A stretch of DNA of 27,885 nucleotides from Armatimonadia bacterium (GTDB lineage: Bacteria; Armatimonadota; Zipacnadia; Zipacnadales; UBA11051). Both the position numbers and the translations under genes were made by a program. Of this stretch, positions 8,374 to 27,885 are shown piece after piece; the first letter of the stretch is position 1, and each line of letters begins with the position of its first letter. The notes below the pieces were generated by a model. It saw only the letters and a list, made by a program, of their open reading frames with translations. It had not been told where the DNA came from and did not search any database. The DNA lies in contig JBDKRC010000115.1 in NCBI GenBank assembly GCA_039683575.1, positions 1 through 27,885 on the forward strand, given 5' to 3'.

Positions 8374-8403
8374 GGTAGAGGCCTCCGGGAGGGTGAGAGC
8401 TTT

Positions 8404-9605: not shown

Positions 9606-9640
9606 CGCTGGTTGGGGTCTCGTTGGGGTCGGTGACCGCT

Positions 9641-9700: not shown

Positions 9701-9722
9701 CCACAGATTCGTCTATCTGCCC

Positions 9723-10682
9723 TCAGTGGTCGTGGCCCTCGTGATCGTGATCGGGAGTTTCCGGGTGCATCAGGGGGCTTACCAGGGCTGGGAGGGGGCA
9801 GGAGGTGCTTTCCATCTCGAGGGTGACCTCGGCGATGTTGAAGCGGGTTTGGAGCATGCCGCGGAGGTCGGCGATGATTTTGACGCGCTCTTCGTCGGTC
9901 TCGGGGCAGGCTACTACGTGGGCGCTGAGGATGAAGAGGTTGGAGCAGGGGGCCCACAGGCGCATGGCGTGGACGTCGTTTACCCCCGGGATCTCGTTCA
10001 TGGCGGCGGCGATGTCGCGGAGGTTGAGGCTGCGCGGGACGCCCAGGAGGAGGATGTGCATGGCCTCGTCGAGCACGCGCCAGGCGCCCCAGATGATGAG
10101 GAGACCCAGGGCGGCGGACATGATCGGGTCCACGAGGTACCAGCCGGTGGTGGCCATGACAATGGCCGCGACGACGACGCCGACGGAGGCGAGCATGTCG
10201 CCGAGAACGTGCATGTAGGCGCTGCGGACGTTGAGGTCGTGATGGTGGCCGGAGAGCCTGGTGAGTACCACGACGTTCACGGCGAGGCCGATGATGGCGA
10301 TGACCATCATCAGGCCGGTTTTGATCTCGGGGGGCTGACGGAAGCGCAGCCAGGCTTCGTGCCAGATCAGAAGGGCGATGACCACCAGGGAGATGCCGTT
10401 GATCATCGCCGCGAAGATCTCGGCGCGGTGCAGGCCGAAGGTGCGGGTGTCGGTGGGCAGGCGGCAGGCGAGGCGCAGGGCGAAGAAGCTGAGCGCAAGC
10501 GACCCGACGTCGGCGAAGACGTGGCCGGCGTCGGAGAGCAGGGCCAGCGAGCCGCTGAGGAAGCCACCGATGACCTCGACGATGAGGATGGCGGCGGTCA
10601 GGATGGTGGCGAGGAAAAGGCGGCGTGACTTGTCGGCGTCGCCAACGCCCATTTCGGTGGCGTGTGTGTGTGTGTGTGCCAT
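9723..10682 (-). CDS. czcD: Cation diffusion facilitator (Zn/Co/Cd efflux), 319 aa
   Basis: 'SGSLALLSDAGHVFAD', 'TFGLHRAEIFAA', 'NVRSAYMHVLGD' and 'DPI'. Six hydrophobic segments and His-rich termini. Confidence 0.92.
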   Translation of the reverse strand: MAHTHTHATEMGVGDADKSRRLFLATILTAAILIVEVIGGFLSGSLALLSDAGHVFADVGSLALSFFALRLACRLPTDTRTFGLHRAEIFAAMINGISLVVIALLIWHEAWLRFRQPPEIKTGLMMVIAIIGLAVNVVVLTRLSGHHHDLNVRSAYMHVLGDMLASVGVVVAAIVMATTGWYLVDPIMSAALGLLIIWGAWRVLDEAMHILLLGVPRSLNLRDIAAAMNEIPGVNDVHAMRLWAPCSNLFILSAHVVACPETDEERVKIIADLRGMLQTRFNIAEVTLEMESTSCPLPALVSPLMHPETPDHDHEGHDH

Positions 10683-10683
10683 G

Positions 10684-10875
10684 GTTGGTCGTTGATGGCG
10701 GTCGGAGCGGGCGAGACGCCCGCACTACGCGTTGGTCGGTGATAACGGCTGGGCCGGATGACCACGGTGAGGCTGTGGTCATGCGGCCCCTCCAGGTTGT
10801 GATCGCTGGTCGGTGATAACGGCCGGCGGGGTACGAGCCCCCGCCCTACAGCGGAGACGGCGTTACGGTAACGGC
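10684..10875. repeat. Cluster of different REP palindromes joined by the GGTCGGTGATAACGGC linker
   Basis: Minus-strand GTAGTGCGGGCGTCTCGCCCGC, GGAGGGGCCG...CGGCCC and GTAGGGCGGGGGCTCGTACCCCGCC units. Confidence 0.8.
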
Positions 10876-12923: not shown

Positions 12924-12984
12924 GCACGGCGTGTGACCGGGCGGTTTGGGCTCAGTCAAGGAACCGTTACGGCTGGCGGTGTCA

Positions 12985-13120
12985 CGCCCGGCTGGAAGCC
13001 GGGCTCTGTTGGCGATAGCTCGCGGCAGGATGCCGCTCGTACGGCGTAGTAGCGCAGCTTGGCGACTACGGCGGTCGCGAGGCAGCCGCTCGTACGGCGT
13101 AGTGGCGCGGCGTGGAGACC
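12985..13120. repeat. REP-like palindromes with a duplicated GCCGCTCGTACGGCGTAGT block
   Basis: Hairpin GCCCGGC-TGGAA-GCCGGGC. Direct repeat at about 13032-13066 and 13085-13119. A related CGCTCGTAC end occurs near 13900. Confidence 0.6.
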
Positions 13121-13125
13121 CGTGG

Positions 13126-13611
13126 CTAGTCGCGGTTGGTTTTGAACTCCTGCAGCAGGCGGACGTGGGCCTTCTCCTGCTGGATCAGTTTGTCTATCTG
13201 CGGCTGCTCGGCGGGCGGGACGATTTCGCGCATTTCGTACAGGAACAGGATCGTGTCCTTTTCGAAGCCGAGGGCGAAGTCGAGCGCCTGCAGGTCATCG
13301 GTCATCCCGGCGACTACGCGGCGGGCGGTTTCTTCGTCCGGCATGACGCGAGTTTGCAGGAGGGCGGTGATGTACTCCTGCTCCTCGTCTGCGTAGGTCT
13401 CGGGAGCGGAGTAGGCGCCGACGCCCTCGCGGAGTTGGCGGAAGGTTGTCTCGTGGTTCTGCTCGGCCTCGGCGAGGTAGTGCATCATTTTGCGGACGCT
13501 ATCACCCCTGGCGGCGGCGGCGACGGCCTCGTAGAAGGCGTGGCCGCTGCGCTCGGTGGCGATGGCCATTTCGTAGACTTCGGCGGCGGAGAAATTGGCG
13601 AGACTGGTCAT
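13126..13611 (-). CDS. Ferritin-like / rubrerythrin-domain protein, 161 aa
   Basis: Di-iron motifs 'AIATERSGHAFY', 'AEAEQNHE', 'ALGFEKDTILF' and 'QQEKAH'. Confidence 0.88.
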   Translation of the reverse strand: MTSLANFSAAEVYEMAIATERSGHAFYEAVAAAARGDSVRKMMHYLAEAEQNHETTFRQLREGVGAYSAPETYADEEQEYITALLQTRVMPDEETARRVVAGMTDDLQALDFALGFEKDTILFLYEMREIVPPAEQPQIDKLIQQEKAHVRLLQEFKTNRD

Positions 13612-13679
13612 TGTCGGGTCCTTGGCGGTGAGGCAGTGAATAGCGTTGGTCTGGAGCAGAGACGATTTGAGAGGCTGCC

Positions 13680-13761
13680 GCCCCTTCGGGGCTCAATGGT
13701 TTTGGTTGCGCGCACCAGGGCCTTGCGGCCCTGGCTAGAGGCCGGACGGCCCTTCGGGCCT
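13680..13761 (+). repeat. Three-hairpin REP-like element
   Basis: GCCCCTTCGGGGCTCAA ... CCAGGGCC-TTGC-GGCCCTGG-CTA ... GACGGCCCTTCGGGCCTG. Near copy of 12842-12923. Confidence 0.85.
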
Positions 13762-13764
13762 GAC

Positions 13765-13868
13765 GGCAACGGCAACGGCAACGGCAACGGCTGACGGCTG
13801 ACGGCTGACGGCTGACGGCTGACGGCTGACGGCTGACGGCTGACGGCTGACGGCTGACGGCTGACGGC
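13765..13868. repeat. Perfect microsatellites (GGCAAC)4 + (GGCTGAC)11
   Basis: Counted directly: 13765-13788 and 13789-13865. Confidence 0.95.
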
Positions 13869-13974: not shown

Positions 13975-15036
13975 CTACAGGCCGCCGGCGTTTTGGATGC
14001 CTTTGGCTCCCGGCCACGTGGCGCGGGGCTCGAGGCTGCGCCAGTCGCAGTCCACGCGCCATTGACTGGCTGCTGTATGGGTATAGACGAGCCAGCCGTA
14101 CCTGGGGTCGGCTAGTTTGTACTGCCAGTCGCGATACTTCTTAGGACAGGGCGCGAGGCAGCGGGTTTCGGGAGCGGGCTGGTCGAGGGCGTCGCGCGTC
14201 CAGGGCTGGACGAGGAGCCACGGGCTGGCGCCGGTTTCCTCGAATTCGTGCGGCTCACGCCAGGGACCAAAAGCGCCGCCGGGATCGTAGTGGGTGGCCC
14301 AGTGGTGGTTGTCCGGCGCTCCCGAGGAGGCCAGGTCGCCGCAGGGGCCGATGCCCTCCGGGGCGGGCTGCCAATTGGCAGCGGTCTCGATCATGCTTGA
14401 GATTATCGCAAGGCGCTTTTTGAGCGCGCGGGCGTGGCTGGAGGAGAGGTTCTGGCGGCGGAGAGCGCCGTTGCGGGCGGAACGCAGGTGATCCCCAGCC
14501 GATTCCAGAGCGGCCTGCCGGTCCCACAGCCCCAGTATATCAGCCATCGACCACATGATGCAAAGCGCGGAGTAGTACTCCAGATGGCGCAGGGCATTGT
14601 CCACCTGGTCTACCTGCCGCAGGGCGAGGCCGATGGTGCGGTTGCCGTAGCAGGCGCGCTCTTGCTTGATCGCGTCGCGGAGGGCGCCGAGGCCGGTACG
14701 GGCGGTGCGGCGTTGGACTATGCCGGCATCTTTCTCGAGATACTGAGACCGCTGGGCGCGGTAGGCCTGGCGGATGGCGAGGTCCACCGGGCGGAAGGCC
14801 TGCCAGATGCAGTTGCCGGGAAGCTCGGCGGCCAGGGCGGCGACGGGCTCGGGCTGGGGGCGGGAGGCGCGGTCGGGCCAGGGGGACTGGTTGCGGTCGA
14901 GGGCGCACTGGGCGGCCTGCAGGTCTGCCAGCAGGCTCTGGGCGAGGCCCTGAGCGGCCGCGGTCTCGGCGAAGGCGGAACCGAGGGAAGACAGCATTAT
15001 CACAACCAGTGCGGGTGCCAGATATCTGGGCATCAT
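13975..15036 (-). CDS. Hypothetical secreted protein, ~353 aa
   Basis: GGAGG Shine-Dalgarno before ATGATGATG (exact start 15033-15039). Signal peptide ends AFA-E. Helical N-terminal part and Trp/Pro/Cys-rich C-terminal part. Confidence 0.65.
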   Translation of the reverse strand: MMPRYLAPALVVIMLSSLGSAFAETAAAQGLAQSLLADLQAAQCALDRNQSPWPDRASRPQPEPVAALAAELPGNCIWQAFRPVDLAIRQAYRAQRSQYLEKDAGIVQRRTARTGLGALRDAIKQERACYGNRTIGLALRQVDQVDNALRHLEYYSALCIMWSMADILGLWDRQAALESAGDHLRSARNGALRRQNLSSSHARALKKRLAIISSMIETAANWQPAPEGIGPCGDLASSGAPDNHHWATHYDPGGAFGPWREPHEFEETGASPWLLVQPWTRDALDQPAPETRCLAPCPKKYRDWQYKLADPRYGWLVYTHTAASQWRVDCDWRSLEPRATWPGAKGIQNAGGL

Positions 15037-15194
15037 CATCGCCTCCAAGTGACGAACCTGTCGGGCACCATGGTAAGCTGCGCGGGCCGCTCTGACAAGT
15101 GTAATTCTGTGAGTTCGCGTGGGAGCGGCGAGTTTCCTGCCCGGGCACGGCAGCAGGAAGTATGAGGGGCACGGCGAATCTATAGAACGAATTT

Positions 15195-15206
15195 CGAACA
15201 TGTTCG
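15195..15206. promoter_or_regulatory. Perfect 12-bp palindrome in the divergent promoter region (possible operator)
   Basis: CGAACATGTTCG in an AT-richer patch between two divergent genes. Confidence 0.3.
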
Positions 15207-15320
15207 GTCACTGAATGACAGGCGCCCGAAGGGGAAACCCCTGAGCAGGCGCTTCCGTTGCGGCCAGTGGGATGACGAAGCCGGTTGGCAGTTCATCGAT
15301 CTCATGGAGGCACAGGCATC

Positions 15321-18300
15321 ATGCGAATCACATCCGCGACCGCGCAGAGGGCTATCATCGCCGTGCTGGCGCTGCTCCCGTCGCTGGCGCTGGCCCAACC
15401 GCCAGGGCCCCCGGAGTGGCTGGAGAAGATCGACCCGACCAAGTATATCCTGCTGGCGGCCAACATGAAGCCCCCGTTCGCGTATGGCACGGACCCCCAG
15501 ATTGAGGCCCAGGGGCAGGGCACACGGATTGACGACGGTCAGGGGCATGTGACCGAGCAGACCATCTTCTTCATGTATGCGATGCAGACGGTCAAGCTGG
15601 CGCAACCGTTCGCCAATACGGCCGCGACCAACCCTCCCACAGCGATGCGCTGGGACATGAACTGGAACATGACCGTCGGCATCTACCAGAACGAGGAGAC
15701 CGCCAAAGCCGCCGTCCGCACGCACTATCTGTCGGATTTCGGGCCTTTCACCGCCGAGGATGAGAACTGTCTCAATGACGCGCGACTGCGCAACGGACGC
15801 GGGGCGGCGGGGGCGATGGGGCGTTTCGTGCGTTACCGCAACCTGATCCTGAAGATTGACACGGGTAACATCCAGGAGGTCAAAGGCAACCGGCAGAAGA
15901 TCGACTCCGACCTCTACAACGGGGCCTACGGGGGGGCCCAGAGCCACCAGCAGGACCTGATCGCGGCTTTGGCGCGCGTGTGGCTGGACAAGGTGGCGGG
16001 GCCGGACCGGGCGGACCTGCACGTGCAGAGCGACAAGGTCCTTTTGCGTTGGTGGACAGCGCACCCCACGGTTGAGCGCGAGCCTGCCGCCGATCAGCAG
16101 TACGTCGTCGTGCAGGTAGACAACCGCTCGGACAAGGTCGCCGCCGTGGGCGCGGAGGCACGGCTGCTGCTGGCCAAGCAGGGCGACGCGGAGATGCAGC
16201 CCATCAGTCGCCCGGTGCGTCTGCCGGACATCGCTCCGGGCGGGTCGCGGCTGGCCACCTTCTACTGGGACCTCGGGGGCAAGAGTATCGAGAACGCGGT
16301 GCTGCGGGTTGAGGTGGGCATTCCGAACGTCGAAGACGCCGACATGAATGACAACCAGTGCGACCTGAAATGCTCCATCTACCTGGCCCACAACGGCACC
16401 AGCGCCTACCGGTGGGTGGAGGATTCGTATTCGTTCAACAACTATGGCTTCACCGACCGCGAGGGGCAGGAGATGCTGGAGGGAATCCTCGCCACCATCA
16501 TCGGGCAGGTCTATACCGATCCCCAAGCCTCCACGCTGCTCACCCGCCTGATCTTCCCGCAGACCTACACGCGCTTCATGGACTATCTGCAGGCCAGCAT
16601 GAAGGAGGGCATTGGGGGACACTGCTACGGCCTGGCCGCCACCGCGGGCCTGTACTTTCTCGACCCCTCACTCCGACCCGGCGGGGGCCGGACCTGCGAC
16701 ATGACCCGCGACGCGGCCTCTGCTAACGTCAATCTCTACCAACGGGCACAGATGGTGCCCGTGGTGCAGGCCCTGCTCAGCGGCGATAACTACTTCGAGC
16801 GCAACTGGGGTCCAGTGACCTGCCTCAACACTGTCCGCAACATTCTGAAGACGCAGCGCAAACCAGTCATCCTGTCCATTGGCGGCGACAACCAGGTGCA
16901 AGAGCAGGTGATGGTCAACGGCGTTCCCCAGATGCAACAGGTCAACAAGTCGTGGGGACATGCGCTACTGGCTTACAAACTGGTAGAGGTGGAAGGCCGC
17001 CCGCCGGCAATCTACCTCTACGATCCGAACATCCCGCCGAAGGGCCAGTGGGCCACCCAGAACCCTTCGACCGGCTTCGGAATCAATGTCGGCGATAACA
17101 CCTGGTTTATGGCCTCCCAAATGTACGGGTGGTACGGAGGTGTTAACAGGATTGCAGCGCGGGAGGTAACCCGCGAGGTGTCCGTGGCCGAGGCCAACGC
17201 GGTCATTCCGCTGATCAAAGCCAAGCTGGCCGAGATGATGGCCTGGTTTGACAAGGCCGGCAAGCTGATGGCTACGTTGCACTGCCCGGCTGATGCCCTG
17301 TTCACCGACCCGCAGGGACGGCGGGTGGGGGTGCTCAATGGCAAGCCGATCAACGAGGTGCCCGGCGCGGAAATCCGGTCCTCCGGCGAGGTGGAGATCT
17401 ACATCCTGCCGCGAGATGTGGAGTTCTCGGTGCAGCTTACGGGCACCGGTTCGGGGCAGGCGGGGTTTGACATCATCCGCTCCAAGGGTGGGGTGCCAGA
17501 GGTTGTGATCTTCGACAAGCTGCCCGTCGGGAGTGGCAGCCGGCTGCAGGCGACGCTGGCCAAGGGGGGCGTGCTGGAGCGGATCACGGGCGAGGGTGGC
17601 AAGACATATGCGCCGACGCTGACGGGCACGCTGCAGGGCGACAGGGTGTCGTGGCAGAGTGGCTCACAGCAGCCCACGAATCAGCCCACGAATCAGCCGA
17701 CCAACCAGCCGACGGACCAGCCAACGGCTGTCGGCGAGCTGGTGGTGTGCCGTTCGGTGGCGGACGGCCAGGCGACGGGCGCAGGGGATAGTTTCCCGCG
17801 GCTGGCGAGTATCTCGTGCCTGCTGCGCTACCAGGGACTGACGCCACAGACGGCGACTTGCGTGTGGAAGCGGGACGGGACCGAGGTCCAGCGCTCACAG
17901 CGGGCGCTGCAAGGGGGCAATGGTTGGGTGACGTTCTCGTTGCGGACCGAGGACCCGGCGGGGCTGGCGGCGGGACGGTGGGAAGTCAGCATCGCGGGAG
18001 CCGGTAATACGGTGCTGGGACGGAAGGCGTTTACTATGGGGCCGCAGGCAACCTCGACGCCAACCGGGCAGCAGGGGAATCATGACGCGGACCTCAAGCT
18101 GACCGGGGGCGCCAGTTCCGTGCCGGGGCCGACGCGGTACCCGACCGATAGCGGCAAGTTGCGGATGAAGGTGATCTATACGGCGCCCGGCACGATTCTG
18201 GACACGGTGGGGATCAATGCCGCGACGCCGGGGGATTTCACCATCAGGATAGATGGCGAGGACCGGCTTAGCTGGCAGATCTACAACCCGTCAGTGCCGG

Positions 18301-18569
18301 GGGCACACCGCATCTCCAATGGCTGGCATGTGCTGACGGTGGCCCACAAGCTCAAGCCGGGGCAGTGGTATACCTTCGAGGCAAGGTGGGGAGCTAACGG
18401 GCTGGACCTGAAAGCGCACACGGGCTGGGAGATCCACGATCCGGTGAGGCTGAAGCTGTCGGGCAAGCCGATCTTCATCGGGGACTTCCCCGGCGACGCG
18501 TCCTGGGGAGCGGGCTACAACATCAACCAGTCATTCACGGGGAAGGTAGCCGACCTGCGCATCGAGTAG
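15321..18569 (+). CDS. Large secreted multidomain protein (CARDB/Ig-like, papain-like Cys-His-Asp domain, QPTN linker, C-terminal LamG-like beta domain), ~1082 aa
   Basis: GGAGG Shine-Dalgarno before ATG 15321 and a signal peptide ending ALA-Q. 'VEDADMNDNQ' resembles a CARDB end. 'GGHCYGLA', 'WGHALLAY' and 'IYLYDPN' give the triad. 'PGQWY...IFIG...SFTGKVADLRI' is LamG-like. Confidence 0.75.
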   Translation: MRITSATAQRAIIAVLALLPSLALAQPPGPPEWLEKIDPTKYILLAANMKPPFAYGTDPQIEAQGQGTRIDDGQGHVTEQTIFFMYAMQTVKLAQPFANTAATNPPTAMRWDMNWNMTVGIYQNEETAKAAVRTHYLSDFGPFTAEDENCLNDARLRNGRGAAGAMGRFVRYRNLILKIDTGNIQEVKGNRQKIDSDLYNGAYGGAQSHQQDLIAALARVWLDKVAGPDRADLHVQSDKVLLRWWTAHPTVEREPAADQQYVVVQVDNRSDKVAAVGAEARLLLAKQGDAEMQPISRPVRLPDIAPGGSRLATFYWDLGGKSIENAVLRVEVGIPNVEDADMNDNQCDLKCSIYLAHNGTSAYRWVEDSYSFNNYGFTDREGQEMLEGILATIIGQVYTDPQASTLLTRLIFPQTYTRFMDYLQASMKEGIGGHCYGLAATAGLYFLDPSLRPGGGRTCDMTRDAASANVNLYQRAQMVPVVQALLSGDNYFERNWGPVTCLNTVRNILKTQRKPVILSIGGDNQVQEQVMVNGVPQMQQVNKSWGHALLAYKLVEVEGRPPAIYLYDPNIPPKGQWATQNPSTGFGINVGDNTWFMASQMYGWYGGVNRIAAREVTREVSVAEANAVIPLIKAKLAEMMAWFDKAGKLMATLHCPADALFTDPQGRRVGVLNGKPINEVPGAEIRSSGEVEIYILPRDVEFSVQLTGTGSGQAGFDIIRSKGGVPEVVIFDKLPVGSGSRLQATLAKGGVLERITGEGGKTYAPTLTGTLQGDRVSWQSGSQQPTNQPTNQPTNQPTDQPTAVGELVVCRSVADGQATGAGDSFPRLASISCLLRYQGLTPQTATCVWKRDGTEVQRSQRALQGGNGWVTFSLRTEDPAGLAAGRWEVSIAGAGNTVLGRKAFTMGPQATSTPTGQQGNHDADLKLTGGASSVPGPTRYPTDSGKLRMKVIYTAPGTILDTVGINAATPGDFTIRIDGEDRLSWQIYNPSVPGAHRISNGWHVLTVAHKLKPGQWYTFEARWGANGLDLKAHTGWEIHDPVRLKLSGKPIFIGDFPGDASWGAGYNINQSFTGKVADLRIE

Positions 18570-18651: not shown

Positions 18652-19671
18652 TCAGGCGGCTGGCTGCAGGCTCCTAACATACTGCATGATGACGTCAAAC
18701 ACGGCCTTTGCCTTGACGTAGTCGATGTGCCCGGGGGTGTCTGAGGACTTGTGGTTGCACGCGCGATCCTCGCCCCAAGCGAAGCAGATGATGGGGATGC
18801 CAGCATCGTGGAACGGGGCGTAGTCGCTCTTGCCGCCGAACTGGTCGTATTCGCAGGAGACGCCGAGGGTGGTCGCAAGGTTGAGGCAGGTGCGGGAGGA
18901 GGGCTGACCTTTGGTGCTGAGGTCGCCGATTTCGAGGGTGTCCGACCCGGCGCCGACCATGTCCATGTTGATCATGGCGATGATGGACTTGCGCTCGGCG
19001 GGGCTGAGGCTTTGGACGTAGGCTTTCGAGCCGGTACGGCCGGTGCCTTTGACGGACTTGCCGTTGGTGTACCTGCCCTCTTCGGCGCCGAAGGCCACGA
19101 ACTTGATCGTCGGCGTGTTCTTTTCGCGGATAAGGAGGCGCGCCAGTTCGAGCATGACGGCCGCGCCGCTGGCGTTGTCGTTGGCGCCGGGGGAGGCCGC
19201 GACGCTGTCGTAGTGGGCGCCGATGACGAGCAGTTTGGCGTCGCCGCGCTTGGTGGCGATGAGGTTTTCGGAGGACTTCCCATTCCAGAGGCGGACGGGC
19301 TGGCGGTCTACTTTGTAGCCGAAGGCGGTTAGCTTGTCATAGAGGTAGTCTCCGGCCTGGGCTTCGGCGTCATAGCCGGTGGGACGGGGGCCGATGGTGC
19401 CGGCGAGGTATTGCACGTGGCCGCGCACGCGGGCTTCGTCCCAGACCATGGCGGCGGGAAGGGAAGCCGGGGCGGCGGCGATGGGCGGCGGGGCGGCGGG
19501 GTTCTGTGCGTCGGGAACGACCGGGGCCGCGGCGACCGACTGGTGCTGGCCCAGCATGGTACCGAGAAGCCAGCCGGCAAGGAAGATTGCCAGACCGAGG
19601 CTGAGGGTCATGACGGCGGGCCAGAGGAGCGAGTGCGAGCGAGAGGCGGCTAGCGGTGAGTTTTGGACCAT
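18652..19671 (-). CDS. Membrane-anchored M28 family zinc peptidase, ~339 aa
   Basis: 'GAHYDS', 'GANDNASG', 'FGAEEG', 'NMDMVG', 'SDYAPF' and 'HKSSD'. N-terminal TM helix and Pro/Ala linker. Start is uncertain and overlaps the kinase 3' end. Confidence 0.88.
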   Translation of the reverse strand: MVQNSPLAASRSHSLLWPAVMTLSLGLAIFLAGWLLGTMLGQHQSVAAAPVVPDAQNPAAPPPIAAAPASLPAAMVWDEARVRGHVQYLAGTIGPRPTGYDAEAQAGDYLYDKLTAFGYKVDRQPVRLWNGKSSENLIATKRGDAKLLVIGAHYDSVAASPGANDNASGAAVMLELARLLIREKNTPTIKFVAFGAEEGRYTNGKSVKGTGRTGSKAYVQSLSPAERKSIIAMINMDMVGAGSDTLEIGDLSTKGQPSSRTCLNLATTLGVSCEYDQFGGKSDYAPFHDAGIPIICFAWGEDRACNHKSSDTPGHIDYVKAKAVFDVIMQYVRSLQPAA

Positions 19672-21149
19672 ATCTTCTGGAAGTTCTCCCTGTAGAGGCG
19701 CCATTCGCCGTTACGTTTGGTGTAGGTGTGCGTGACGTTGGCGCTGCTTTCGTAGTTTGAGGCGGGGCCCCAGCCGTGATAGTACTGGACGAATTGAACA
19801 GTGGCCTTGGACCCGTCCACATGGGTGCGAAGGTTGCTGAGTTCAACCTCTTTGTTCGGCTGGCGGCGATTCTCCTTCACGTTCCAGGCACGGTAGCCCT
19901 CCCGGTTCATCTCGTCAACGACACCATCAGACCACAGGCAGGCAGCCTGGGTATCAGCGTCATTGCTTTCCCAGGCGGCACGCCAGCGTTCGACTACGGC
20001 TTCGACGGCGGCGGCTTCCTCTTCGGGAGTCGGGACGGGAGGCGGCGCTGTGGAGTTGGGATCTACCACGGGGCCGGGCGTGAGCGCGCCCTCCTGACCC
20101 GGGGGTTGGACGGGCTGCGGTGTTGCGGGACTGTGGCCCTGGCCGAGGAGGATGCCGGCAGTGAGTACCAGGCCGATCCCAAGGATGGCACAGAGGATCA
20201 CGAGCGGGATGACGACGTTGCTTGAGCGAGGAGGCGGGGGAGGCGGAGGTGGCGGCGCGATGATGGTGCGCTGAGGTACGGGGACGGGCGGCGGCGGGGC
20301 GACGGGAAGGGGGACGGGGATGTTCAGGGGCTGGCCGGCGGCGAAGGCACGGAGGGCGGCGGCCACTTCACCCGCCGAGGCGAAGCGCTGGGAGGGCTCC
20401 AGGGCGAGGCACCGGAGGATGATGGCTTCGAGCGCGGGCGGGAGGGCCGGGCAGTACTGGCGCGGGGGGACCGGCGAGGTCGTGAGGCGCTGCATGGCGC
20501 GTGACATGGGGGTCTCGCCCGCGAAAGGCTCGCGCCCGCAGACCATGCGGTAGAGCACGAGGCCGAGGGAGTAGAGATCGGAGCGGCCATCCACGGGGTT
20601 GCCCTTGATCTGCTCGGGGGAGGCGTACTCGGGCGTGCCGACGGACATGCCGGTGCTGGTAATGCGGATCTCGTCGGCGGCCTGAGCGATGCCGAAGTCG
20701 GTGACGACCGGCAGGCCCATCTCGCTGAGCAGGATGTTGCCGGGCTTCACGTCCCGGTGGACGATGCCCTGCCGGTGGGCGTAGTCGAGGGCTTCGGCGA
20801 CGGGGATGATCAGCTGGGCAGCGCGGCGGGGGTCGAGGACGGGCTCTTTGGTGAGGAGGTCGTCGAGGGTGCCGCCGGTGAGAAGCTGCATGGCCATGTA
20901 GGGCAGGTCGCCATCCTGGCCCGCCACGTAGACGGTGGCGATGCTGGGGTGCTGGGCGAGAGCGGCCATGCGCTGGGCCTCGCGCTGGAAGCGCTGGACG
21001 ACGCCGGGCTCCTGGGCGAGGTGCGGCGGCAGGACCTTGAGTGCGACCGGGCGGCGGGGATTGTCCTGCATGGCCTCATAGACCACGCCCATGCCGCCAC
21101 GGCCAAGCTCGCGGGTGATGGTGAAACCGCCGACGGTGGTTCCGATCAT
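19650..21149 (-). CDS. Hanks-type Ser/Thr protein kinase with TM and C-terminal NTF2/SnoaL-like domain, 499 aa
   Basis: GRGGMG, VALK, HRDVKPGN, DFG, GTPEY and DLYSLG motifs, then a TM helix. C-terminus 'VEAVVERWRAAWESND...ATVQFVQYY...GEWRLYRE'. Confidence 0.93.
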   Translation of the reverse strand: MIGTTVGGFTITRELGRGGMGVVYEAMQDNPRRPVALKVLPPHLAQEPGVVQRFQREAQRMAALAQHPSIATVYVAGQDGDLPYMAMQLLTGGTLDDLLTKEPVLDPRRAAQLIIPVAEALDYAHRQGIVHRDVKPGNILLSEMGLPVVTDFGIAQAADEIRITSTGMSVGTPEYASPEQIKGNPVDGRSDLYSLGLVLYRMVCGREPFAGETPMSRAMQRLTTSPVPPRQYCPALPPALEAIILRCLALEPSQRFASAGEVAAALRAFAAGQPLNIPVPLPVAPPPPVPVPQRTIIAPPPPPPPPPRSSNVVIPLVILCAILGIGLVLTAGILLGQGHSPATPQPVQPPGQEGALTPGPVVDPNSTAPPPVPTPEEEAAAVEAVVERWRAAWESNDADTQAACLWSDGVVDEMNREGYRAWNVKENRRQPNKEVELSNLRTHVDGSKATVQFVQYYHGWGPASNYESSANVTHTYTKRNGEWRLYRENFQKIWSKTHR

Positions 21150-22228
21150 TGCTTTGCGGTCCCCTTCGTGGGTTCGAGGGTCGCTCGTTTGGGCGAGGAG
21201 GCAGCGGGCTGCTTCCTGGCGGGCTTCGGTTTGGCTTTGGCGACCGGTTTGGAGGCGGGTTGGGACGAACCGCTGAGGGAGCAGGTGATGGCGGCCAGCA
21301 TGGCCTCGCGGTTGGCCGACCAGTGGCCGCTACCGGCGGGGAACTCGACCGTGAGCATGGCGGCTCCGAGTGAGAGGCCGCAGTAGTCGCCGAAGCTGCC
21401 GGGAGTTGGATAGCCGATGTCTTCCTTGATCGGATAGCCGTTGCAGCGCTTCATGGCGCGGGCCATGTGGATGCCCGTGCCGGTGGGGTTCAGGCAGCGC
21501 AGAGGCTGGTGGAGGTTGATGACCTTGTCCGGCGGGTATTGCCGCAGCAGCTTGGCGACGGCCTGGGTCTCAGGTTCCGAGAGAGGTCTGGGGCCGGGGT
21601 TGTACTTGTCTTTGGCGGCCTTGGGACGCCAGTTGCGGGACCAATTGCGGTTGATGTCCACCTTGTGGGCGTTCACGCGGGTGCCCGCGGCGAGGCCGTC
21701 GGGGTTGACCGCCGGGACGATGATGACCTGCCGGCCCTTGAGCGCGGAGGGGGTGGACTGAAGGTACTTGAGGAGTGAACGGCAGACGTTGACGCCGTCG
21801 GGTTCGTTGCCGTGGAAGCCGCCGAGGACGACCACTCTCTCGCTGCCGGAGCCAAGGCGGTAGGCGACGATGGACTTGCCGCGAACGGAGGTGCCGATGG
21901 TGAAGCTGCCTGAAGCGGGCTTGGCTGCCTTCTTGGCAGGCGCTTTGGCGGGTGCTTTGGCCGGCAGGCTGGCGACGGTGACGGGCGCGGGGGCCTGAGG
22001 CGTCGGCAGGGCGGGCTGCACCAGAGGCGCGGGAGGTGCCGCAGCGGGTGTGAGGCCGGGCGGCGGAATGGGCGTGTCCGTGGGCTGCACGGCAGCCGGC
22101 GGGGGTGGGGTTGGTTTGGGTACGGTCATGGCTTGCACCAGGGCAACGACTTGAATGATGATGCCGAGGGCGAGAATGGCCCCGACGATTGGTATCCAGT
22201 GTTTGAGAAGTGTGTTTCCGATGGACAT
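21146..22228 (-). CDS. mpaA: Membrane-anchored M14 zinc carboxypeptidase, murein peptide amidase A-like, ~360 aa
   Basis: 'HGNE', 'NPDG...TRVNAHKVDINRNW', 'SEPET', 'LHQP', 'IGYPTPGSFG' and 'TVEFP'. N-terminal TM and Pro/Ala/Lys linker. Confidence 0.85.
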   Translation of the reverse strand: MSIGNTLLKHWIPIVGAILALGIIIQVVALVQAMTVPKPTPPPPAAVQPTDTPIPPPGLTPAAAPPAPLVQPALPTPQAPAPVTVASLPAKAPAKAPAKKAAKPASGSFTIGTSVRGKSIVAYRLGSGSERVVVLGGFHGNEPDGVNVCRSLLKYLQSTPSALKGRQVIIVPAVNPDGLAAGTRVNAHKVDINRNWSRNWRPKAAKDKYNPGPRPLSEPETQAVAKLLRQYPPDKVINLHQPLRCLNPTGTGIHMARAMKRCNGYPIKEDIGYPTPGSFGDYCGLSLGAAMLTVEFPAGSGHWSANREAMLAAITCSLSGSSQPASKPVAKAKPKPARKQPAASSPKRATLEPTKGTAKQ

Positions 22229-22256
22229 GCGGTCCCCCAAAGGGCTGTGATAGTTG

Positions 22257-24182
22257 CTACTTGTAGAGTTCATCTTTGGTAATCCCGAAGCGGTTGCCCT
22301 GATCGCCAAAGACCAACACCTGGCGTCCAGCGCTGTGGTAGCCGCCGTTCTTCCCGCCAATGCGGCGATAGTCAAGGCTGAAAGAGGCCTGAACCGTGCC
22401 GTCAGGGCCTTCGGAGATCTCAATGCCGCCACGGGAGATGTTGATACTTGCCGAGGGGCTCATGATCTTCTGCTCATGAGCGTAGAAGGATGAGCGATCA
22501 TAGCTCTTATTGTTGGAGTAGATTGTGGCGTCAGGGTGGTAGCAAAGCATGACGTAGTCATAGGCTCTGCCGCTTTCCCAGCGCTGAATCCAGCTATCCA
22601 CGGCGCGGTAGATGTCTTCGTCGGGCGCGTCTGAGTGCTCCCAGCCCCAAATACCCTCACGGCCTGTATCACCATTGTCACCATCGCCCTGCGACTGCCG
22701 GGTGACACCCTCAGGCTTAGGCCCTTTGCTCAAGACGACCCGTACAGCGTCTCCGCGCTCGACTTCGGTGCCTGCCGATGGGGTCTGGGACATGATCTGG
22801 CCGGCGGCGATACTGTCGTGGTACCGCTGCTCGTCCGAAATCTGCAGCGGGAGCTTACCGACGCTCATCAGGGTGGCCCGCGCAGCGTCGCCTGTCTGGC
22901 CGACGAGGTCGGGGACCTTGACTGCCGGGCCGCGGCTGAGCGTGACGACGATGGCCTGTCCCTTCTGGCAACGGCCGCCGGGTGCGGGGTCCTGGCGGCA
23001 AATCATGTTAGCGGGGACGGTCTCGTTGAACTGCTTGTCGCTGGCCTGCTGGAGGGTGAAGCCAGCCTTGTTTGAGGTCACGGCGGCGCGGGCGTTGTCG
23101 AAGCTGAGGCCGATGAGGCTGGGGGCCTTGGCGGGGCCGACGAGACCGCTATTGATGAGCATGAGCCCGCCGCCACCGAGGAGGAAGAGCGCGCCAAGGA
23201 TGGCAAGCACCAGGAGGCCGGTCTTGGAGCGGGGCTTCGGCAGAGGGGCAGGCGGGGCGGGCGCGTACGACGTGGGCGCGGGAGTCGGCATGGGAGCAGG
23301 CGTGACTGTCGTGGATTGTGGCATGGCGTAGGGGACGTCGCGGGGGGCGGCCTGCACGTGCGGCAACTGCAGGGCGCGGAGCTCGGCGGCGAGCTGCCCG
23401 GCGTTGGCGTAGCGCTCGCTGGGGTCCTTGGCCAGACACTTGAGGATGATGCGCTCGAGCTCGGACGGGATGTTGCCGAAGCGGTAGGAGAGCGGCGTGG
23501 GCGGGCGTTCCATGTGGGCTACGGCCATGGAGAGGCCGCTGCCCGCATCAAAGGGGAGGCCGCCAGCGACCATCTGGTAGAGCATTACGCCGAGGGAATA
23601 TATGTCGGAGCGGCCGTCAACCGGATTGCCTTTGACCTGTTCGGGAGAGGCGTACTCGGGGGTGCAGATGGCCATGCCGGTAAGCGTCACGCGGACTTCG
23701 TCGCCGGCTTTGGCGATGCCGAAGTCGGTGATGACCGGCTGGCCCTGGGCGCTGAACATGATGTTCGCGGGCTTGATGTCGCGGTGGATGATGCCACGGG
23801 AGTGGGCGAAGTCGAGCGCGTCGGCGAGCTGGGCGCCGATGGCGGCGACTTGGTCGAAGGGCAGCCCGGAGGGGGCGTGGCGGGCCAGATGGTCGGAGAG
23901 AGTGCCGTGGCTCAGAAGCTGCATGGTGAAATAGGCGGTGCCCTGGTCCTCGCCGGCGGCGTAGACGGAGACGACGCCGGGGTGGCCATCGAGGGCGGCC
24001 ATCTTCTGGGCTTCGCTGCGGAAGCGCTCGCTCACGTCGGCGCTGGAAGCGAACTGCGGCGGAAGCGCCTTGAGGGCGACGCGGCGGGAGGGCGTTTGCT
24101 GCTGGGCTTCGTAGACGATCCCCATGCCGCCCCTTCCGATCTCCCGGATGATCTGGAACTCGCCGATGGTCTTGCCAATCAT
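22257..24182 (-). CDS. PknB-like Ser/Thr kinase with TM, two PASTA domains and a C-terminal NTF2-like domain, 641 aa
   Basis: Kinase motifs GRGGMG, HRDIKPAN and DFG. PASTA repeats 'APSLIG...QDPAPG...LSRGP' and 'VPDLVG...QTPSAG...LSKGP'. C-terminus 'IYRAVDSWIQRWES...ITKDE'. Confidence 0.93.
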   Translation of the reverse strand: MIGKTIGEFQIIREIGRGGMGIVYEAQQQTPSRRVALKALPPQFASSADVSERFRSEAQKMAALDGHPGVVSVYAAGEDQGTAYFTMQLLSHGTLSDHLARHAPSGLPFDQVAAIGAQLADALDFAHSRGIIHRDIKPANIMFSAQGQPVITDFGIAKAGDEVRVTLTGMAICTPEYASPEQVKGNPVDGRSDIYSLGVMLYQMVAGGLPFDAGSGLSMAVAHMERPPTPLSYRFGNIPSELERIILKCLAKDPSERYANAGQLAAELRALQLPHVQAAPRDVPYAMPQSTTVTPAPMPTPAPTSYAPAPPAPLPKPRSKTGLLVLAILGALFLLGGGGLMLINSGLVGPAKAPSLIGLSFDNARAAVTSNKAGFTLQQASDKQFNETVPANMICRQDPAPGGRCQKGQAIVVTLSRGPAVKVPDLVGQTGDAARATLMSVGKLPLQISDEQRYHDSIAAGQIMSQTPSAGTEVERGDAVRVVLSKGPKPEGVTRQSQGDGDNGDTGREGIWGWEHSDAPDEDIYRAVDSWIQRWESGRAYDYVMLCYHPDATIYSNNKSYDRSSFYAHEQKIMSPSASINISRGGIEISEGPDGTVQASFSLDYRRIGGKNGGYHSAGRQVLVFGDQGNRFGITKDELYK

Positions 24183-24287
24183 GTTGTGCCCATCCTTGGA
24201 ACGCGGTTAGTACCCGTGGAACTCAGTGACGAGTGGTACATACTGTGAGACAGCGGAATCTTCCGATCAGTGACCAGATCCGAGGCA

Positions 24288-25205
24288 TCAGCCCTTGTGA
24301 CCAGCGGGGACCGGCGTGCCCTGCTGCAGAAGGTCGCTGAGAGTGACAGGTCGCAGGTTCTTTTCGTCCAGCCACTTCAGGGCGCGGGGCAGCGCTTCGG
24401 CGGTGTGCCAGCCCCGTCCGTTGGCGTGCATGATGATGATCGAGCCGGGCCTGGCGCGACGGAACTCGGTAAGGATATCGCTCGCGGTGAAGCTCCGGTC
24501 AGGATCGCCGGTGCTGACGTCCCAGAGGACGGACTGCATGCCGAGGGCAGCAGCTTCGGCTGTGACCTTGCGGTTGAACTCGCCGTAGGGGGGGCGATAG
24601 TAGGCGGCCGGGCGGCCGGTGTGGGATTGGAGCAGTTGCTGCGTCTTGGCCAGTTCATCATGTGCGGCGGCGACGGCGATCTTGGGCATGTGCGGATGGA
24701 GATAGGAATGGTTTTCGAGTTCGAAGCAGGGTATGGAAGCCAGTTCGGCGACCGCGTCCGGGTGGGCTTCGATCCACCTGCCGCCGAGAAAGAAAGTGGC
24801 GGGAGTCTGGGTGGAGATGAGGGTCTCGATGATCTTGTGGTCGTAGCCGGCGGGTTTCTGGGTCTGGCAGCAGTCGAAGGTCAGGGCGACGCAACGGGCG
24901 TCGGTCTTGACATGCGTGAAGACCAGAGGCTCGACCGGAGTGGGCGAGAAGTCTCCATAGTCAGCGGGCGGGAGTTGCGGCTGCTTCGCCACGGGCGTGG
25001 TTGGCTCAGGCTCCGGCCTGGGGGCTGGAGCGGGAGGCGGCGGTGGCGGCGGCGCTGTCCCGGCCGAAGCGGGCGTCGCGGCAGCGGCAACCTGGGCTGG
25101 AGGCGCGGGGGCTTGCTTCCGCGGGAGGTAGTGGTCGAGTGCGGCCAGCACCAGTAGAGCGAGGCCCGCTCCGAGCAGGATGGTGGCGTGGGTCTGGCGC
25201 GTCAT
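24288..25205 (-). CDS. Membrane-anchored CE4/NodB polysaccharide deacetylase, ~305 aa
   Basis: 'VALTFDC', 'ATFF', 'ENHSYLHP', 'RPPYGE', 'WDVSTGD' and 'IIIMH'. N-terminal TM and Pro linker. ATG overlaps the upstream kinase stop (ATGA). Confidence 0.9.
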   Translation of the reverse strand: MTRQTHATILLGAGLALLVLAALDHYLPRKQAPAPPAQVAAAATPASAGTAPPPPPPPAPAPRPEPEPTTPVAKQPQLPPADYGDFSPTPVEPLVFTHVKTDARCVALTFDCCQTQKPAGYDHKIIETLISTQTPATFFLGGRWIEAHPDAVAELASIPCFELENHSYLHPHMPKIAVAAAHDELAKTQQLLQSHTGRPAAYYRPPYGEFNRKVTAEAAALGMQSVLWDVSTGDPDRSFTASDILTEFRRARPGSIIIMHANGRGWHTAEALPRALKWLDEKNLRPVTLSDLLQQGTPVPAGHKG

Positions 25206-26713
25206 TCCTTCTTCAGCCCCCATTTCTCTATCTTCCAGGCATCGCCCTCGCGAACCAGGGCGACGTCGCCGGACCAGTAGCTGGTTGCGGAGGGACCCTG
25301 CAACTCAAGTCTCAGGGGGATTGCGGCTTCCTCAGGGTTGCAGCCCAGTTCGGTTTCGCCCAGGTTCATGATCTCGTACCTGGTGTTGTCGCTGAAGACC
25401 TGGTTGGCGTATTTGTCATAGGACAGAGATTGCTTCCTAAGTGCGGAGAAGCAGGCATAGGCACCGCTGCAGTCGCCAGAGTTGCAGAGGCTCACGTAGG
25501 CCCGTAACGCCTTTTCGGGACCGCCGGAGGGTTGCGGCTGCGCAGGAGGCTCCGGGGGAGTGGGCTCTTCGGATTTGGTTGCCACAAATGGACTCTCTGG
25601 TGCGGTTGGCGGCGCACCGGGGCCGGGAGGGACCGCAGTCGGCGCTACGGGCGTGGGTACGCCCGGGGACGGCGGAGTATAGACCGCCGACGGCGGGGAA
25701 GGGGGTACTACCGTCACATTCTGTGAAAGCATGGCTCCGAAGGCGATGAGGCCGACTATGAGGGCGATTGCACCCACCGAGGCCAGCACGATGATGAGCG
25801 GGTTAGTCCGCGAGCGGGGCGGGACAGGGGGATTGAGCATGACGCTGGTCTGCTGCGGCTGTGCGACCGGCGGGGTGTAGCCGGGCCTCAGGATCACCCG
25901 TGGGAGGGCCTGGGCGCGGAGGGCGGCGGCGAGGTCGCGGCCATTGTTGAAGCGCTGGCTCGGGTCCTTGGCCAGACAGCGCAGGATGATCCGCTCGAGA
26001 CCGGCCGGCATCCCGGCCACGAGATCGCCGGGCCGCCGGGGGGGCTCCTGGAGGTGCTTCATGGCGAAGCCCATCGGCGTGTCGGACTGGAAGGGCAGAC
26101 GGCCGGTGACCATCTCGTAGAGCACGATGCCGAGGGAATACAGGTCCGAACGGCCGTCGAGGGGGTTGCCCCGGACCTGCTCGGGGGAGGCGTACTGGGG
26201 GGTGCCGAGGGTCATGCCGGTGCTGGTGAGGCGGTATTCGTCCATGGCCTTGGCGATGCCAAAGTCGGTGACGACCGGGCGACCGCGCTCGTCGAACATG
26301 ATGTTGGCGGGCTTGATGTCGCGGTGGATGACGCCGCGCTCGTGGGCGTAGTCGAGGCCGTCGGCCACTTGGGCGGCCAGTTCGGCGGCATCGGAGAGCG
26401 GCAGGGCGCCGTGGGTGCGCAGGCGCTGGTCGAGGTCGCCGCGCAAGAGCTGCATGACGAGGTAGGGAACGCCGTCCGACTGGCCGGCGGCATAGACCTG
26501 GGCGATGTTCGGGTGGCCCTCCAGACGGGCCATTTTGTTGGCCTCGTCGGCGAAGCGGGCCGCGACGCCCGGTTCTGCGGCGAGGTGAGGCGGCAGGACC
26601 TTGACGGCCACGCGGCGCTGAGGGGCCTGCTGCTGGGCCTCGTACACCACGCCCATGCCGCCATGGCCGATTTCCCGGATGATCTGCAGGTTGGCGAAGG
26701 TCTCGCCTGTCAT
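25202..26713 (-). CDS. Hanks-type Ser/Thr protein kinase with TM and C-terminal NTF2-like domain, 503 aa
   Basis: GHGGMG, VAVK, HRDIKPAN, DFG and GTPQY motifs, TM and Pro linker. C-terminus 'PEKALRAYVSL...AYACFS...LVREGDAWKI'. Confidence 0.93.
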   Translation of the reverse strand: MTGETFANLQIIREIGHGGMGVVYEAQQQAPQRRVAVKVLPPHLAAEPGVAARFADEANKMARLEGHPNIAQVYAAGQSDGVPYLVMQLLRGDLDQRLRTHGALPLSDAAELAAQVADGLDYAHERGVIHRDIKPANIMFDERGRPVVTDFGIAKAMDEYRLTSTGMTLGTPQYASPEQVRGNPLDGRSDLYSLGIVLYEMVTGRLPFQSDTPMGFAMKHLQEPPRRPGDLVAGMPAGLERIILRCLAKDPSQRFNNGRDLAAALRAQALPRVILRPGYTPPVAQPQQTSVMLNPPVPPRSRTNPLIIVLASVGAIALIVGLIAFGAMLSQNVTVVPPSPPSAVYTPPSPGVPTPVAPTAVPPGPGAPPTAPESPFVATKSEEPTPPEPPAQPQPSGGPEKALRAYVSLCNSGDCSGAYACFSALRKQSLSYDKYANQVFSDNTRYEIMNLGETELGCNPEEAAIPLRLELQGPSATSYWSGDVALVREGDAWKIEKWGLKKE

Positions 26714-26769
26714 GTTATTGGTCGTACCCTTTGCGTCCGTGTCAGCCCGAAAAACGGGCCGGTGAAGGT

Positions 26770-27885
26770 CTACTGATCAGAGTTACGGAGAACCTCAACC
26801 TGAGCTCGACACGTTGCGGCAGCACGGGCGGAGGGCGCATCCCCGCGCGCGTCGAAGGCCGTTGCGGCTTGCTGCAGATGCTGAATGGCTTCATCCCGTC
26901 GCCCCTCGCGCGCGAGACGCTCGCCCTGCGCACGTAGTGACTGCGGGTCTGGCTGCTGCGGTCTCGTTTCGGTGGCGGGCCGGCGAGCAGGACCTGCGCC
27001 GTTGACCCAAATCGTCATTTCACTCCTGGCGGTACCGGACGGGCTCTTTGAGCCGACCTGCTTGGGCCTCCGCGTGGGCGCTGGCGGTTTGTCACTCGCC
27101 CAGATCGTTATCTCGTTTCTTACAGTACCGCTCGGTCTCGAACGACGTGCCGGTGCCGTCGGCTTGATTGTGGGCTTGGTTGTGGGCTTGGCGTGGGCGG
27201 CGGCAACCGGCGCAGGTTTTGCTAAGGGGCCGCTCTGTGGTTCTGGTCGCCTGCCAGAGAGCCCTTCCGTCTCGGACTCAGTCTGTGGAAGCGGTGTCGC
27301 GCGGGTGGCCTTCTCGGGTGGAAGCTGGCGGAACGGATTGGTTGATGACGTAATCGGCTGTTGGGTAGCGTCGAACATCGGGGGTGGCACGGGCAGGGGC
27401 GGCGGCGTCCTGTCGAGCGATGTTTGGGCCGAAGTCAGAGGTGGCGTAGGGGAAGCCGGGGAGCGGCCCGAGATCATGGCCCCAACGGCCACCAGACCGG
27501 CAATGACCCCGATCGCGCCCAGCAAGGCCAGCACATAGACGAGTGGGCTAAGACGTGAGTGCACCACACCGGCCTGCACGGCTGTAACCTTCGTTGGCTG
27601 CGGCTGTGCCGCGGGCGGGGTGTAGCCGGGCTGAAGGACGGCTCGCGGCAGTTGCTGCGCGCGCAGGGCTGCGGCCAGGTCACGCCCGCTATTGAAGCGC
27701 TGGCTGGGGTCCTTGGACAGACAGCGGAGGATGATCCGCTCCAGGTTAGCGGGCATCCCGGCGAGGAAGTCTCCCAGCCGCCGGGGTTGCTCCTCGATGT
27801 GCTGCATGGCATAGCCCATGGGGCTGTCAGAGGTGAAGGGAAGCCGGCCGCTGATCATCTGGTAGAGAACGATGCCAAGCGAGTA
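26770..27885 (-). CDS. Hanks-type Ser/Thr protein kinase (5'-truncated by the window) with TM, long Pro-rich linker and TPR-like C-terminal helices
   Basis: Frame is open to the window edge ('YSLGIVLYQMISGRLPF...RCLSKDPSQRF') and closely parallels the 25202-26713 kinase. C-terminus 'LRAQGERLAREGRRDEAIQHLQQAA'. Confidence 0.88.
   Translation of the reverse strand, partial: YSLGIVLYQMISGRLPFTSDSPMGYAMQHIEEQPRRLGDFLAGMPANLERIILRCLSKDPSQRFNSGRDLAAALRAQQLPRAVLQPGYTPPAAQPQPTKVTAVQAGVVHSRLSPLVYVLALLGAIGVIAGLVAVGAMISGRSPASPTPPLTSAQTSLDRTPPPLPVPPPMFDATQQPITSSTNPFRQLPPEKATRATPLPQTESETEGLSGRRPEPQSGPLAKPAPVAAAHAKPTTKPTIKPTAPARRSRPSGTVRNEITIWASDKPPAPTRRPKQVGSKSPSGTARSEMTIWVNGAGPARRPATETRPQQPDPQSLRAQGERLAREGRRDEAIQHLQQAATAFDARGDAPSARAAATCRAQVEVLRNSDQ

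Follow-up and report, generated by a model that had tools for sequence, protein, structure and literature searches.

A proposed accessory envelope-signalling island of Ser/Thr receptor kinases and membrane-tethered enzymes in an Armatimonadota genome

Among described systems, the PASTA kinases, such as PknB of Mycobacterium, PrkC of Bacillus and StkP of Streptococcus, are among the closest to the subject of this article, an island of genes for Hanks-type receptor kinases and membrane-tethered enzymes in an Armatimonadia bacterium (assembly GCA_039683575.1; 6.23 Mb in 352 contigs, 63.5% G+C; here G000). The downstream end of the island occupies positions 18652-27885 of the window, by which we mean the whole stretch of DNA analysed, the entire 27,885-base contig JBDKRC010000115.1 (C115). 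Through two joins that we infer, it runs very probably onto contig C60 of the same genome and probably from there onto contig C292. So traced, the island measures some 40 kb, would serve envelope signalling as an accessory element, and has eight kinases (K1 to K7 and one with an FKBP ectodomain), four enzymes (E1 to E4), three FHA proteins and one PP2C, in the order PP2C and FKBP kinase; FHA3, FHA2; FHA1, K1, E1, K2, K3, K4, K5, E2, K6, E3, K7, E4.

Related arrays were found in a congener (G002), in three genomes of the same order (G195, G033, G426) and in three others of the phylum (G239, G130, G057), and sequence and gene order in these indicate that a kinase-plus-hydrolase cassette is a conserved unit. 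(Numbers beginning with L denote stretches of the relatives' genomes, of metagenome contigs or, for L017, of C292.) In the open literature, outside which most subscription journals lie, neither an array of kinases and wall hydrolases nor an NTF2-type kinase ectodomain was found described; the conflict systems of PMC7159879 are other systems than the present array.

The island beside described systems

The island belongs with wall-sensing Ser/Thr kinase signalling. Its likeness to the PASTA-kinase systems lies in the presence of FHA proteins and a PP2C, and in K6 (22257-24182, minus strand; 641 amino acids; Pkinase 169 bits), a Hanks-type kinase with the motifs VALK, HRDIKPAN, DFG, TLTG and SPE, one transmembrane segment (residues 325-343) and then two PASTA repeats (82.9 bits, in two stretches). 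PrkC is reported to be tied to wall hydrolases by way of WalRK (PMC4478028). The island differs from these systems, however, in having eight paralogous kinases with mostly non-PASTA ectodomains, in giving the cassette a membrane-tethered enzyme gene of its own, and in showing no SEDS or penicillin-binding protein (PBP) gene in its annotated parts; moreover, the canonical PASTA kinase of G000 is encoded elsewhere. That kinase (contig C311, 13802-14488) adjoins a PBP Transpeptidase gene, as befits a housekeeping copy, and K6 is only 38% identical to it; a kinase of its size class (an open frame of ~610-670 amino acids) ranks with the top matches in almost every relative searched. The 17 array kinases of G000 and G002 make up one clade, sharing 54-98% identity among themselves and only 34-41% with the housekeeping kinase; a motif scan found VAxK, HRD, DFG and SPE retained in all 17, and nearly all have a single transmembrane segment C-terminal of the kinase domain. 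The island supplements the canonical PASTA kinase and does not replace it.

Mycobacteria have, besides the cluster fhaA-fhaB-pstP-rodA-pbpA-pknA-pknB, the kinase PknF with the FHA-bearing ABC transporter Rv1747. The island is like the cluster in bringing FHA, PP2C and kinase genes together, but shows no rodA or pbpA in its annotated parts and has many kinases with interleaved hydrolases. An FHA-ABC_tran-ABC2_membrane protein, reminiscent of Rv1747, is encoded at the head of the arrays of G002, G239 and G130, whereas the three contigs of G000 showed none.

A further likeness is to a pathway of stem-peptide trimming, that of the L,D-carboxypeptidases Csd6, Pgp2 and Bd1075, which end in an NTF2 domain, and of the D,L-carboxypeptidases Csd4 and Pgp1 (family M99). 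Sequence comparison shows homology between this NTF2 domain and three ectodomains of the island, those of K1, K6 and K7. That of K1 scores 36.2 bits with the Pfam family Cds6_C (cut-off 27), and a profile of K1-type ectodomains matches Bd1075 (7o21, 1.2e-12), Pgp2 (6xj6, 1e-5) and Csd6 (4xzz, 1.3e-4), entry names that are confirmed in PMC8938487. K7 (19650-21149, minus strand; 499 amino acids; Pkinase 162.8 bits) stays below the cut-off with 19.4 bits; its G002 ortholog (G2_i), the ectodomain of which is 50% identical, passes with 32.2 bits. The C-terminal domain of K6 aligns with the profile of K1-type ectodomains at an hhalign probability of 99.4% and is rare (14 matches in 1.84 billion representatives), and a metagenome scan with three NTF2 sequences gave six loci. 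In Pgp2, peptidoglycan is bound by the NTF2 pocket, and sacculi fail to pull down a K307A mutant (PMC8038945); in Bd1075, the NTF2 domain directs the targeting of the enzyme within the periplasm (PMC8938487). When K1-type ectodomains were compared with Pgp2, Lys307, which Pgp2 needs for sacculus binding, aligned with the K of a GTK motif that is kept in K1, its G002 counterpart (G2_b) and G195, and that reads GPK in G033. The column was placed by the one at which 6xj6 and 6xj7 differ (K against A), 6xj7 being, we assume, the K307A mutant. The difference from Csd6 and Pgp2 is that here the NTF2 domain is joined through a transmembrane segment to a cytoplasmic kinase, and not to a YkuD-type L,D-carboxypeptidase domain.

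A fourth ectodomain may be of the same kind. K5 (25202-26713, minus strand; 503 amino acids; Pkinase 174 bits) is a single-pass receptor kinase with intact catalytic motifs, a transmembrane segment at residues 306-324 and a Cys-rich ectodomain of ~105 residues, for which structure-atlas matches (TM-score 0.8-0.87) to NTF2-like parts of MecA_N and Cds6_C give a lead. Thus the four G000 kinases that precede enzymes (K1, K5, K6 and K7) would all have NTF2-like ectodomains, K5 by predicted structure only. The peptidoglycan theme of the preliminary description, which was made from the window's letters and open reading frames, is strengthened by the homology found for K1, K6 and K7. As far as can be told, the ectodomains of K2, K3 and K4 are not NTF2-like: a search with the predicted structure of K2 suggests a PsbP/DcrB-like fold, and the part of K4 in the window (26770-27885, minus strand, truncated at the contig end; Pkinase profile positions 181-253) comprises the end of the kinase domain, one transmembrane segment and a long ectodomain, low in complexity and helical at its C-terminus.

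The gene after K1 may extend the likeness. E1, on C60, appears to start with a signal peptide that can be cleaved, is anchored by its C-terminus and has no N-terminal tail. It is M99-like (Peptidase_M99 35 bits, cut-off 27), although AstE_AspA_cat scores higher (55 bits); among solved structures it matches 2qj8 (7e-9) and, more weakly, Csd4 entries of Helicobacter pylori (3e-7 over residues 43-240). Judged by sequence, the K1/E1 cassette looks like a Csd6-Csd4 pair with a kinase in place of the L,D-carboxypeptidase domain. A Csd6-like/Csd4-like pair was met on a low-G+C metagenome contig (L119:1983-4349, and L118), where a protein with YkuD and Cds6_C domains, linked by tandem AEKKRIET repeats, is followed directly by a strong M99 gene. 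E1 has HxxE, in contrast to the strongly matching M99 protein of L119, which has Q at that His (GIQGDE).

MpaA (murein peptide amidase A) is known from Escherichia coli and Vibrio, and is a soluble cytoplasmic enzyme of murein recycling that acts on free tripeptide. The best solved relatives of E3 (21146-22228, minus strand; Peptidase_M14 68 bits) are MpaA structures (5hxd, E 7.8e-24; 4axv, 8.6e-17), and an alignment of 11 homologs shows no variation at H139, E142, R194, N195 or E295 and keeps H240 in at least 90%, so that E3 has the zinc site, the substrate-binding Arg-Asn and the catalytic Glu of the MpaA type and may be regarded as a candidate gamma-D-Glu-mDAP (meso-diaminopimelic acid) amidase. 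It differs from MpaA in its transmembrane segment (residues 12-30) and Pro/Ala stalk of ~90 residues, because of which it is probably extracytoplasmic, and in being paired with a kinase (one G002 copy is even fused to one); it ends in a Lys/Ala-rich tail. A complex prediction for the M14 domain of E3 with the NTF2-like domain of K6 scored 0.21 against a mark of 0.32, and says nothing either way. Recycling-type enzymes with an N-terminal transmembrane anchor and stalk, of NagZ-like GH3, LdcA-like S66 and MpaA-like M14 families, were seen at L104:7995-9305, L101:12931-14208 and window 21146-22228; in model bacteria, the NagZ, LdcA and MpaA types are cytoplasmic and act on soluble muropeptides.

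The remaining two enzymes are of other families. E4 (18652-19671, minus strand, with an alternative start at 19704), the final gene of the array, encodes an aminopeptidase-like zinc peptidase that covers positions 1-193 of the 193 in the Peptidase_M28 profile (135 bits), has a transmembrane segment at residues 19-37, and aligns with 2ek8 (E 1.2e-26) in the metal-ligand motifs HxD, NDxASG, EE, DM and H; to judge by these residues, the zinc sites of both the M14 and the M28 enzyme are intact. E2 (24288-25205, minus strand, with an alternative start at 25223; Polysacc_deac_1 97.6 bits) is like the NodB-type deacetylases and retains motifs 2, 3 and 5 of the CE4 family (HSYLH, RPPY and IIMH, for H(S/T)xxH, RxPY and LxH). 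CE4 motif 1, TFDD, supplies the catalytic base and a metal-ligand Asp. In E2 it reads TFDC (alignment with 7y51, and motif scan), with the first Asp kept and the second replaced by Cys, and in the G002 and G195 copies it reads TIDLG. All three window enzymes had been described as membrane-anchored cell-wall enzymes of one layout. By sequence the layout holds, each having one N-terminal hydrophobic segment and then a Pro/Ala-rich stretch; the term cell-wall enzyme may be kept, at the level of family, for M14 and CE4, but is unsupported for M28.

Kinases and their partner enzymes in related arrays

The G002 array begins, on one strand, with FHA-M48, kinase, NlpC/P60+SH3, kinase (two PASTA and NTF2), M99-like, kinase and M14; continues with a kinase-M14 fusion, kinase, kinase, ankyrin protein, kinase and an unknown protein; and ends with kinase (three PASTA), CE4, kinase (NTF2), M28 and M23+LGFP. 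At its head are divergent FHA, FHA-ABC-2 transporter and PP2C genes. When its kinases are compared with those of G000, the kinase domains group by genome and the ectodomains are orthologous across genomes (K1/G2_b 50% identity, K7/G2_i 50%, K2/G2_f 35%, and the C-terminal part of K6 with G2_c 32%). In three such pairs the next gene is the same, an NTF2 kinase being followed by an M99-like, an M14 or an M28 gene. The first of these combinations, a K1-type ectodomain kinase and then an M99-like gene, recurs in metagenome contigs L115 and L116.

Pairing of a particular ectodomain with a particular enzyme is not confined to the NTF2 kinases. A kinase directly upstream of NlpC/P60 has one homologous ectodomain of ~165 residues in four of four genomes (L014:8533-9027, L102:6225-6719, L106:1310-1804 and L103:3259-3753), with 25 invariant columns; Pfam recognised no family on it in the one such kinase scanned, and a scan of metagenome contigs with it (A3) gave 113 pattern matches and no relatives. 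In G002, G195 and G426, CE4 comes next after a PASTA kinase; in G000 the CE4 gene is just upstream of the PASTA kinase. There are also two fusions: L014:15483-17234 of G002 encodes 583 residues with kinase, transmembrane segment and an M14 domain whose catalytic residues (HxxE, NRN, His and Glu) are intact, and L102:3736-4935 of G195 encodes a CE4 protein (motif 1 TIDLG) with a PASTA domain between transmembrane segment and catalytic domain. In three distant kinase-M14 clusters (P0019, P0020 and P0024) HxxE is degenerate, which suggests a pseudo-peptidase sensor. The preliminary description had itself proposed conservation of the pairing in relatives as a test, and on these results the cassette passes it.

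The six further arrays (some fragmentary; that of G426 was read from tblastn only) have as interleaved genes S66 (LdcA-like), PASTA-CE4, NlpC/P60 (+C26), GH3 (NagZ-like), M14, M14+YkuD, Amidase_3 and Amidase_2. Leaving signalling genes aside, we counted 29 genes inside the eight arrays or at their ends, of which about 20 are of peptidoglycan-active families. The class is represented by 79 genomes, and the majority hold one to three kinases; G000 has 10, G002 11 and G195 10. A three-kinase contig of G021 was not counted, being a separate cytoplasmic cluster of kinase, FHA/VWA and PP2C. A K1-like kinase (E <= 1e-60, strict filter) was found in 18 of the 401 genomes of the phylum sample, and 12 further K1-like matches in the phylum that were inspected were made up of 10 single kinases with no listed enzyme as neighbour and two arrays.

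How the kinases came to differ in their outer parts may be read from K3, K4 and K5 (window 25202-27885 and C60:3-2133). Over their first ~540 nucleotides these genes are 94-100% identical, and K3 and K4 remain at 98-99% to about nucleotide 810, after which all pairs drop abruptly to ~40% in the transmembrane and ectodomain parts. This mosaic, with the clustering of kinase domains by genome, would fit gene conversion, or reuse of a kinase module with exchanged ectodomains. The near-identity of the modules also accounts for the contig breaks.

Extent and surroundings of the locus

Open reading frames and Pfam profiles agree on seven genes between 18652 and 27885, all on the minus strand, with the gene order and families first proposed. 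The junctions, too, were borne out letter by letter: an ATGA overlap joins the stop of K5 to the start of E2 (25202-25205) and another the stop of E3 to the start of K7 (21146-21149), a gap of 28 nucleotides (22229-22256) separates K6 from E3, and K7 and E4 overlap by 22 nucleotides (19650-19671), provided that the M28 gene begins at its second ATG. Between K4 and K5 (26714-26769, minus strand) lies a small hairpin, GCCCG-TTTTT-CGGGC, with no T-run after it.

Contig C60 starts within a kinase gene, and the N-terminal part of K4 is seen at C60:3-575: the tail of C115, one missing nucleotide and the head of C60 align in register with the paralog K3, and a metagenome contig of a separate run links window position 27883 to the N-terminal part of a K5-like kinase. 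On the same strand, C60 adds K3, K2, E1, K1 and an FHA protein with a transmembrane segment, then two divergent FHA proteins. C292 (reversed) opens with the end of an FHA domain, followed by the only PP2C_2 match in G000 and, adjoining it, a kinase of the array clade with an FKBP-type prolyl isomerase ectodomain (C292:1153-2724, L017). Reading upstream in this way had been suggested as a check, and it has yielded both the FHA and PP2C genes predicted there and, in K1-E1, another cassette. Eight of the 13 Pkinase matches in G000 are on C115 and C60, so their clustering is not due to chance.

Of the other open reading frames in the window, that at 15285-18569 (plus strand; 1094 residues) is convergent with the array; its product starts with a hydrophobic segment near the N-terminus and carries a PT repeat and DUF2914, with no further Pfam match; that at 4000-8427 (minus strand; 1475 residues) has no Pfam match at E <= 0.01, and the same applies to those at 9595-10782, 12946-13794, 13975-15201 and 1580-2521. 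A promoter scan found no promoter-like site. The terminator scan is uninformative: it gave six candidate sites where 5.2 would be expected, and every one of them is on the plus strand. Wastewater and sludge runs contain parts of the stretch (the top DNA run has 0.56 of the sampled words), from which any inference about habitat is weak.

Possible roles of the cassettes

With moderate confidence, we favour the reading that these are functional cassettes, each placing a wall-binding receptor kinase beside a membrane-tethered trimming enzyme. One part would be a single-pass Hanks-type receptor kinase with a small outer domain on a Pro-rich stalk, and the other, encoded by a co-oriented and tightly spaced gene, an enzyme from a family that trims peptidoglycan, likewise stalked and tethered to the membrane. 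At the spot where this partner works on stem peptides or glycan, the kinase would use its PASTA or NTF2-like modules to sense what condition the wall is in, or which fragments of it are there. FHA proteins from the head of the island, among which relatives have an FHA-gated ABC-2 transporter, would receive the signal, and the single PP2C would reset it.

Several findings weigh against this. Within the island, K2 to K5 are consecutive, with no enzyme gene between them, and K2, K3 and K4 have no enzyme partner, so that the alternation of kinases and enzymes first described holds for part of the array and is not strict, and the proposal that every kinase has a cognate enzyme is not supported. The metal-ligand Asp is missing from the CE4 proteins of G000, G002 and G195, which makes their activity uncertain, and they may only bind or be inactive; the M28 family has no established role in the wall. 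The more distant arrays also contain genes unrelated to the wall (ankyrin, beta-propeller, unknowns). The genus has three other species, and in two of them (two kinases each, at 90% and 85% completeness) no such island turned up; moreover, none of 11 flanking proteins (10 from the window, one from C292) was matched within ~20 kb of the G002 array, which would make the island dispensable and possibly mobile. In other phyla, only two of 80 MpaA-like loci (the best 80 of at least 541) had a kinase within 8 kb, neither of them adjacent, so the link to kinases belongs to the clade of array kinases and not to the enzyme families. Lastly, one metatranscriptome run gave contigs of 160-297 nucleotides (0-4 mismatched letters each) on K7, K6 and K5 and over the K4/K5 junction; as these are short pieces only, they demonstrate neither a transcript nor an operon. 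All in all, the first account of the window is partly supported.

A more elaborate version of the favoured reading, which we consider unlikely, would see in the island a combinatorial reader of peptidoglycan, in which each cassette joins a bond-specific enzyme (for example of NagZ, amidase, LdcA, MpaA/Csd4/P60 or CE4 type) to a kinase that reports its substrate or product by a PASTA, Csd6-type NTF2 or fused-enzyme ectodomain, with a shared FHA/PP2C output decoding the cell's own or a foreign wall; new specificities would arise through ectodomain swaps onto a kinase module kept uniform by recombination.

That the walls in question are those of other bacteria is, to our minds, also improbable. 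On this explanation the enzymes would disassemble muropeptides outside the cell, from necromass or prey in sludge, and the kinases would report the fragments. Anchored NagZ-like GH3, LdcA-like S66, MpaA-like M14 and amidase proteins, which the arrays jointly hold, would suit such scavenging, as would the patchy, accessory phyletic pattern with its fast divergence and its gain and loss of cassettes, and the presence of parts of the stretch in wastewater and sludge runs; the weakness of the inference about habitat detracts from the last of these. However, nothing in the island was identified as an uptake system, and the ABC gene of the relatives is of the ABC-2 type, transporters of which are usually exporters; and the NTF2 precedents, Pgp2 and Bd1075, bind the cell's own sacculus.

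It seems to us somewhat less probable still that control runs from the inside outwards, with kinases that do not sense what the enzymes act on or produce but phosphorylate Ser/Thr in the cytoplasmic N-terminal tails of the enzymes, or in FHA adaptors that bind them, and with ectodomains that serve mainly to position the kinase. There is an analogue in mycobacterial PknB, which acts on proteins of wall synthesis, the array kinases are catalytically intact by their motifs, and three FHA proteins and a PP2C are to hand. Most of the enzymes do have a short tail bearing Thr or Ser before the transmembrane segment (MTRQTHAT in E2, and likewise in the G002 M14, the G239 Amidase_3 and the G195 S66), yet these tails have only 4-20 residues and their sequence is not kept between orthologs, E1 has none at all, and in the kinase-M14 fusion the enzyme lies outside on the kinase's own transmembrane segment, where phosphorylation of a tail would be unneeded. 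That there is no coupling, a lineage-specific tandem expansion of kinases having trapped unrelated exoenzyme genes and the tight spacing being due only to compact operons, is already disfavoured and seems to us very improbable. In its favour, the kinase modules duplicated recently and recombination has homogenised them (94-100% identity over the first ~540 nucleotides of K3, K4 and K5), some arrays include unrelated genes, and runs of kinases without enzymes exist. Against it, the same pairs of ectodomain and enzyme recur in separate families within the phylum, as they do in metagenome contigs; by our count, 20 of the 29 genes interleaved with kinases are wall-active by family; and kinase-M14 and PASTA-CE4 fusions occur.

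The island bears on a general gap, as ligand choice by bacterial Ser/Thr receptor kinases is known for very few ectodomains, essentially PASTA. Its kinases are a naturally occurring series of near relatives, with almost all the differences between them in the ectodomains; the NTF2 domain of the Csd6/Pgp2 type is a plausible second peptidoglycan-binding sensor module on kinases; and for several kinases a partner enzyme is genetically assigned, which points to stem-peptide intermediates around the gamma-D-Glu-mDAP bond as candidate ligands. Together, these make the ligand specificity of receptor kinases directly testable. It also appears that, in this little-studied phylum, enzyme types otherwise associated with cytoplasmic recycling are used as membrane-tethered, probably periplasmic proteins.

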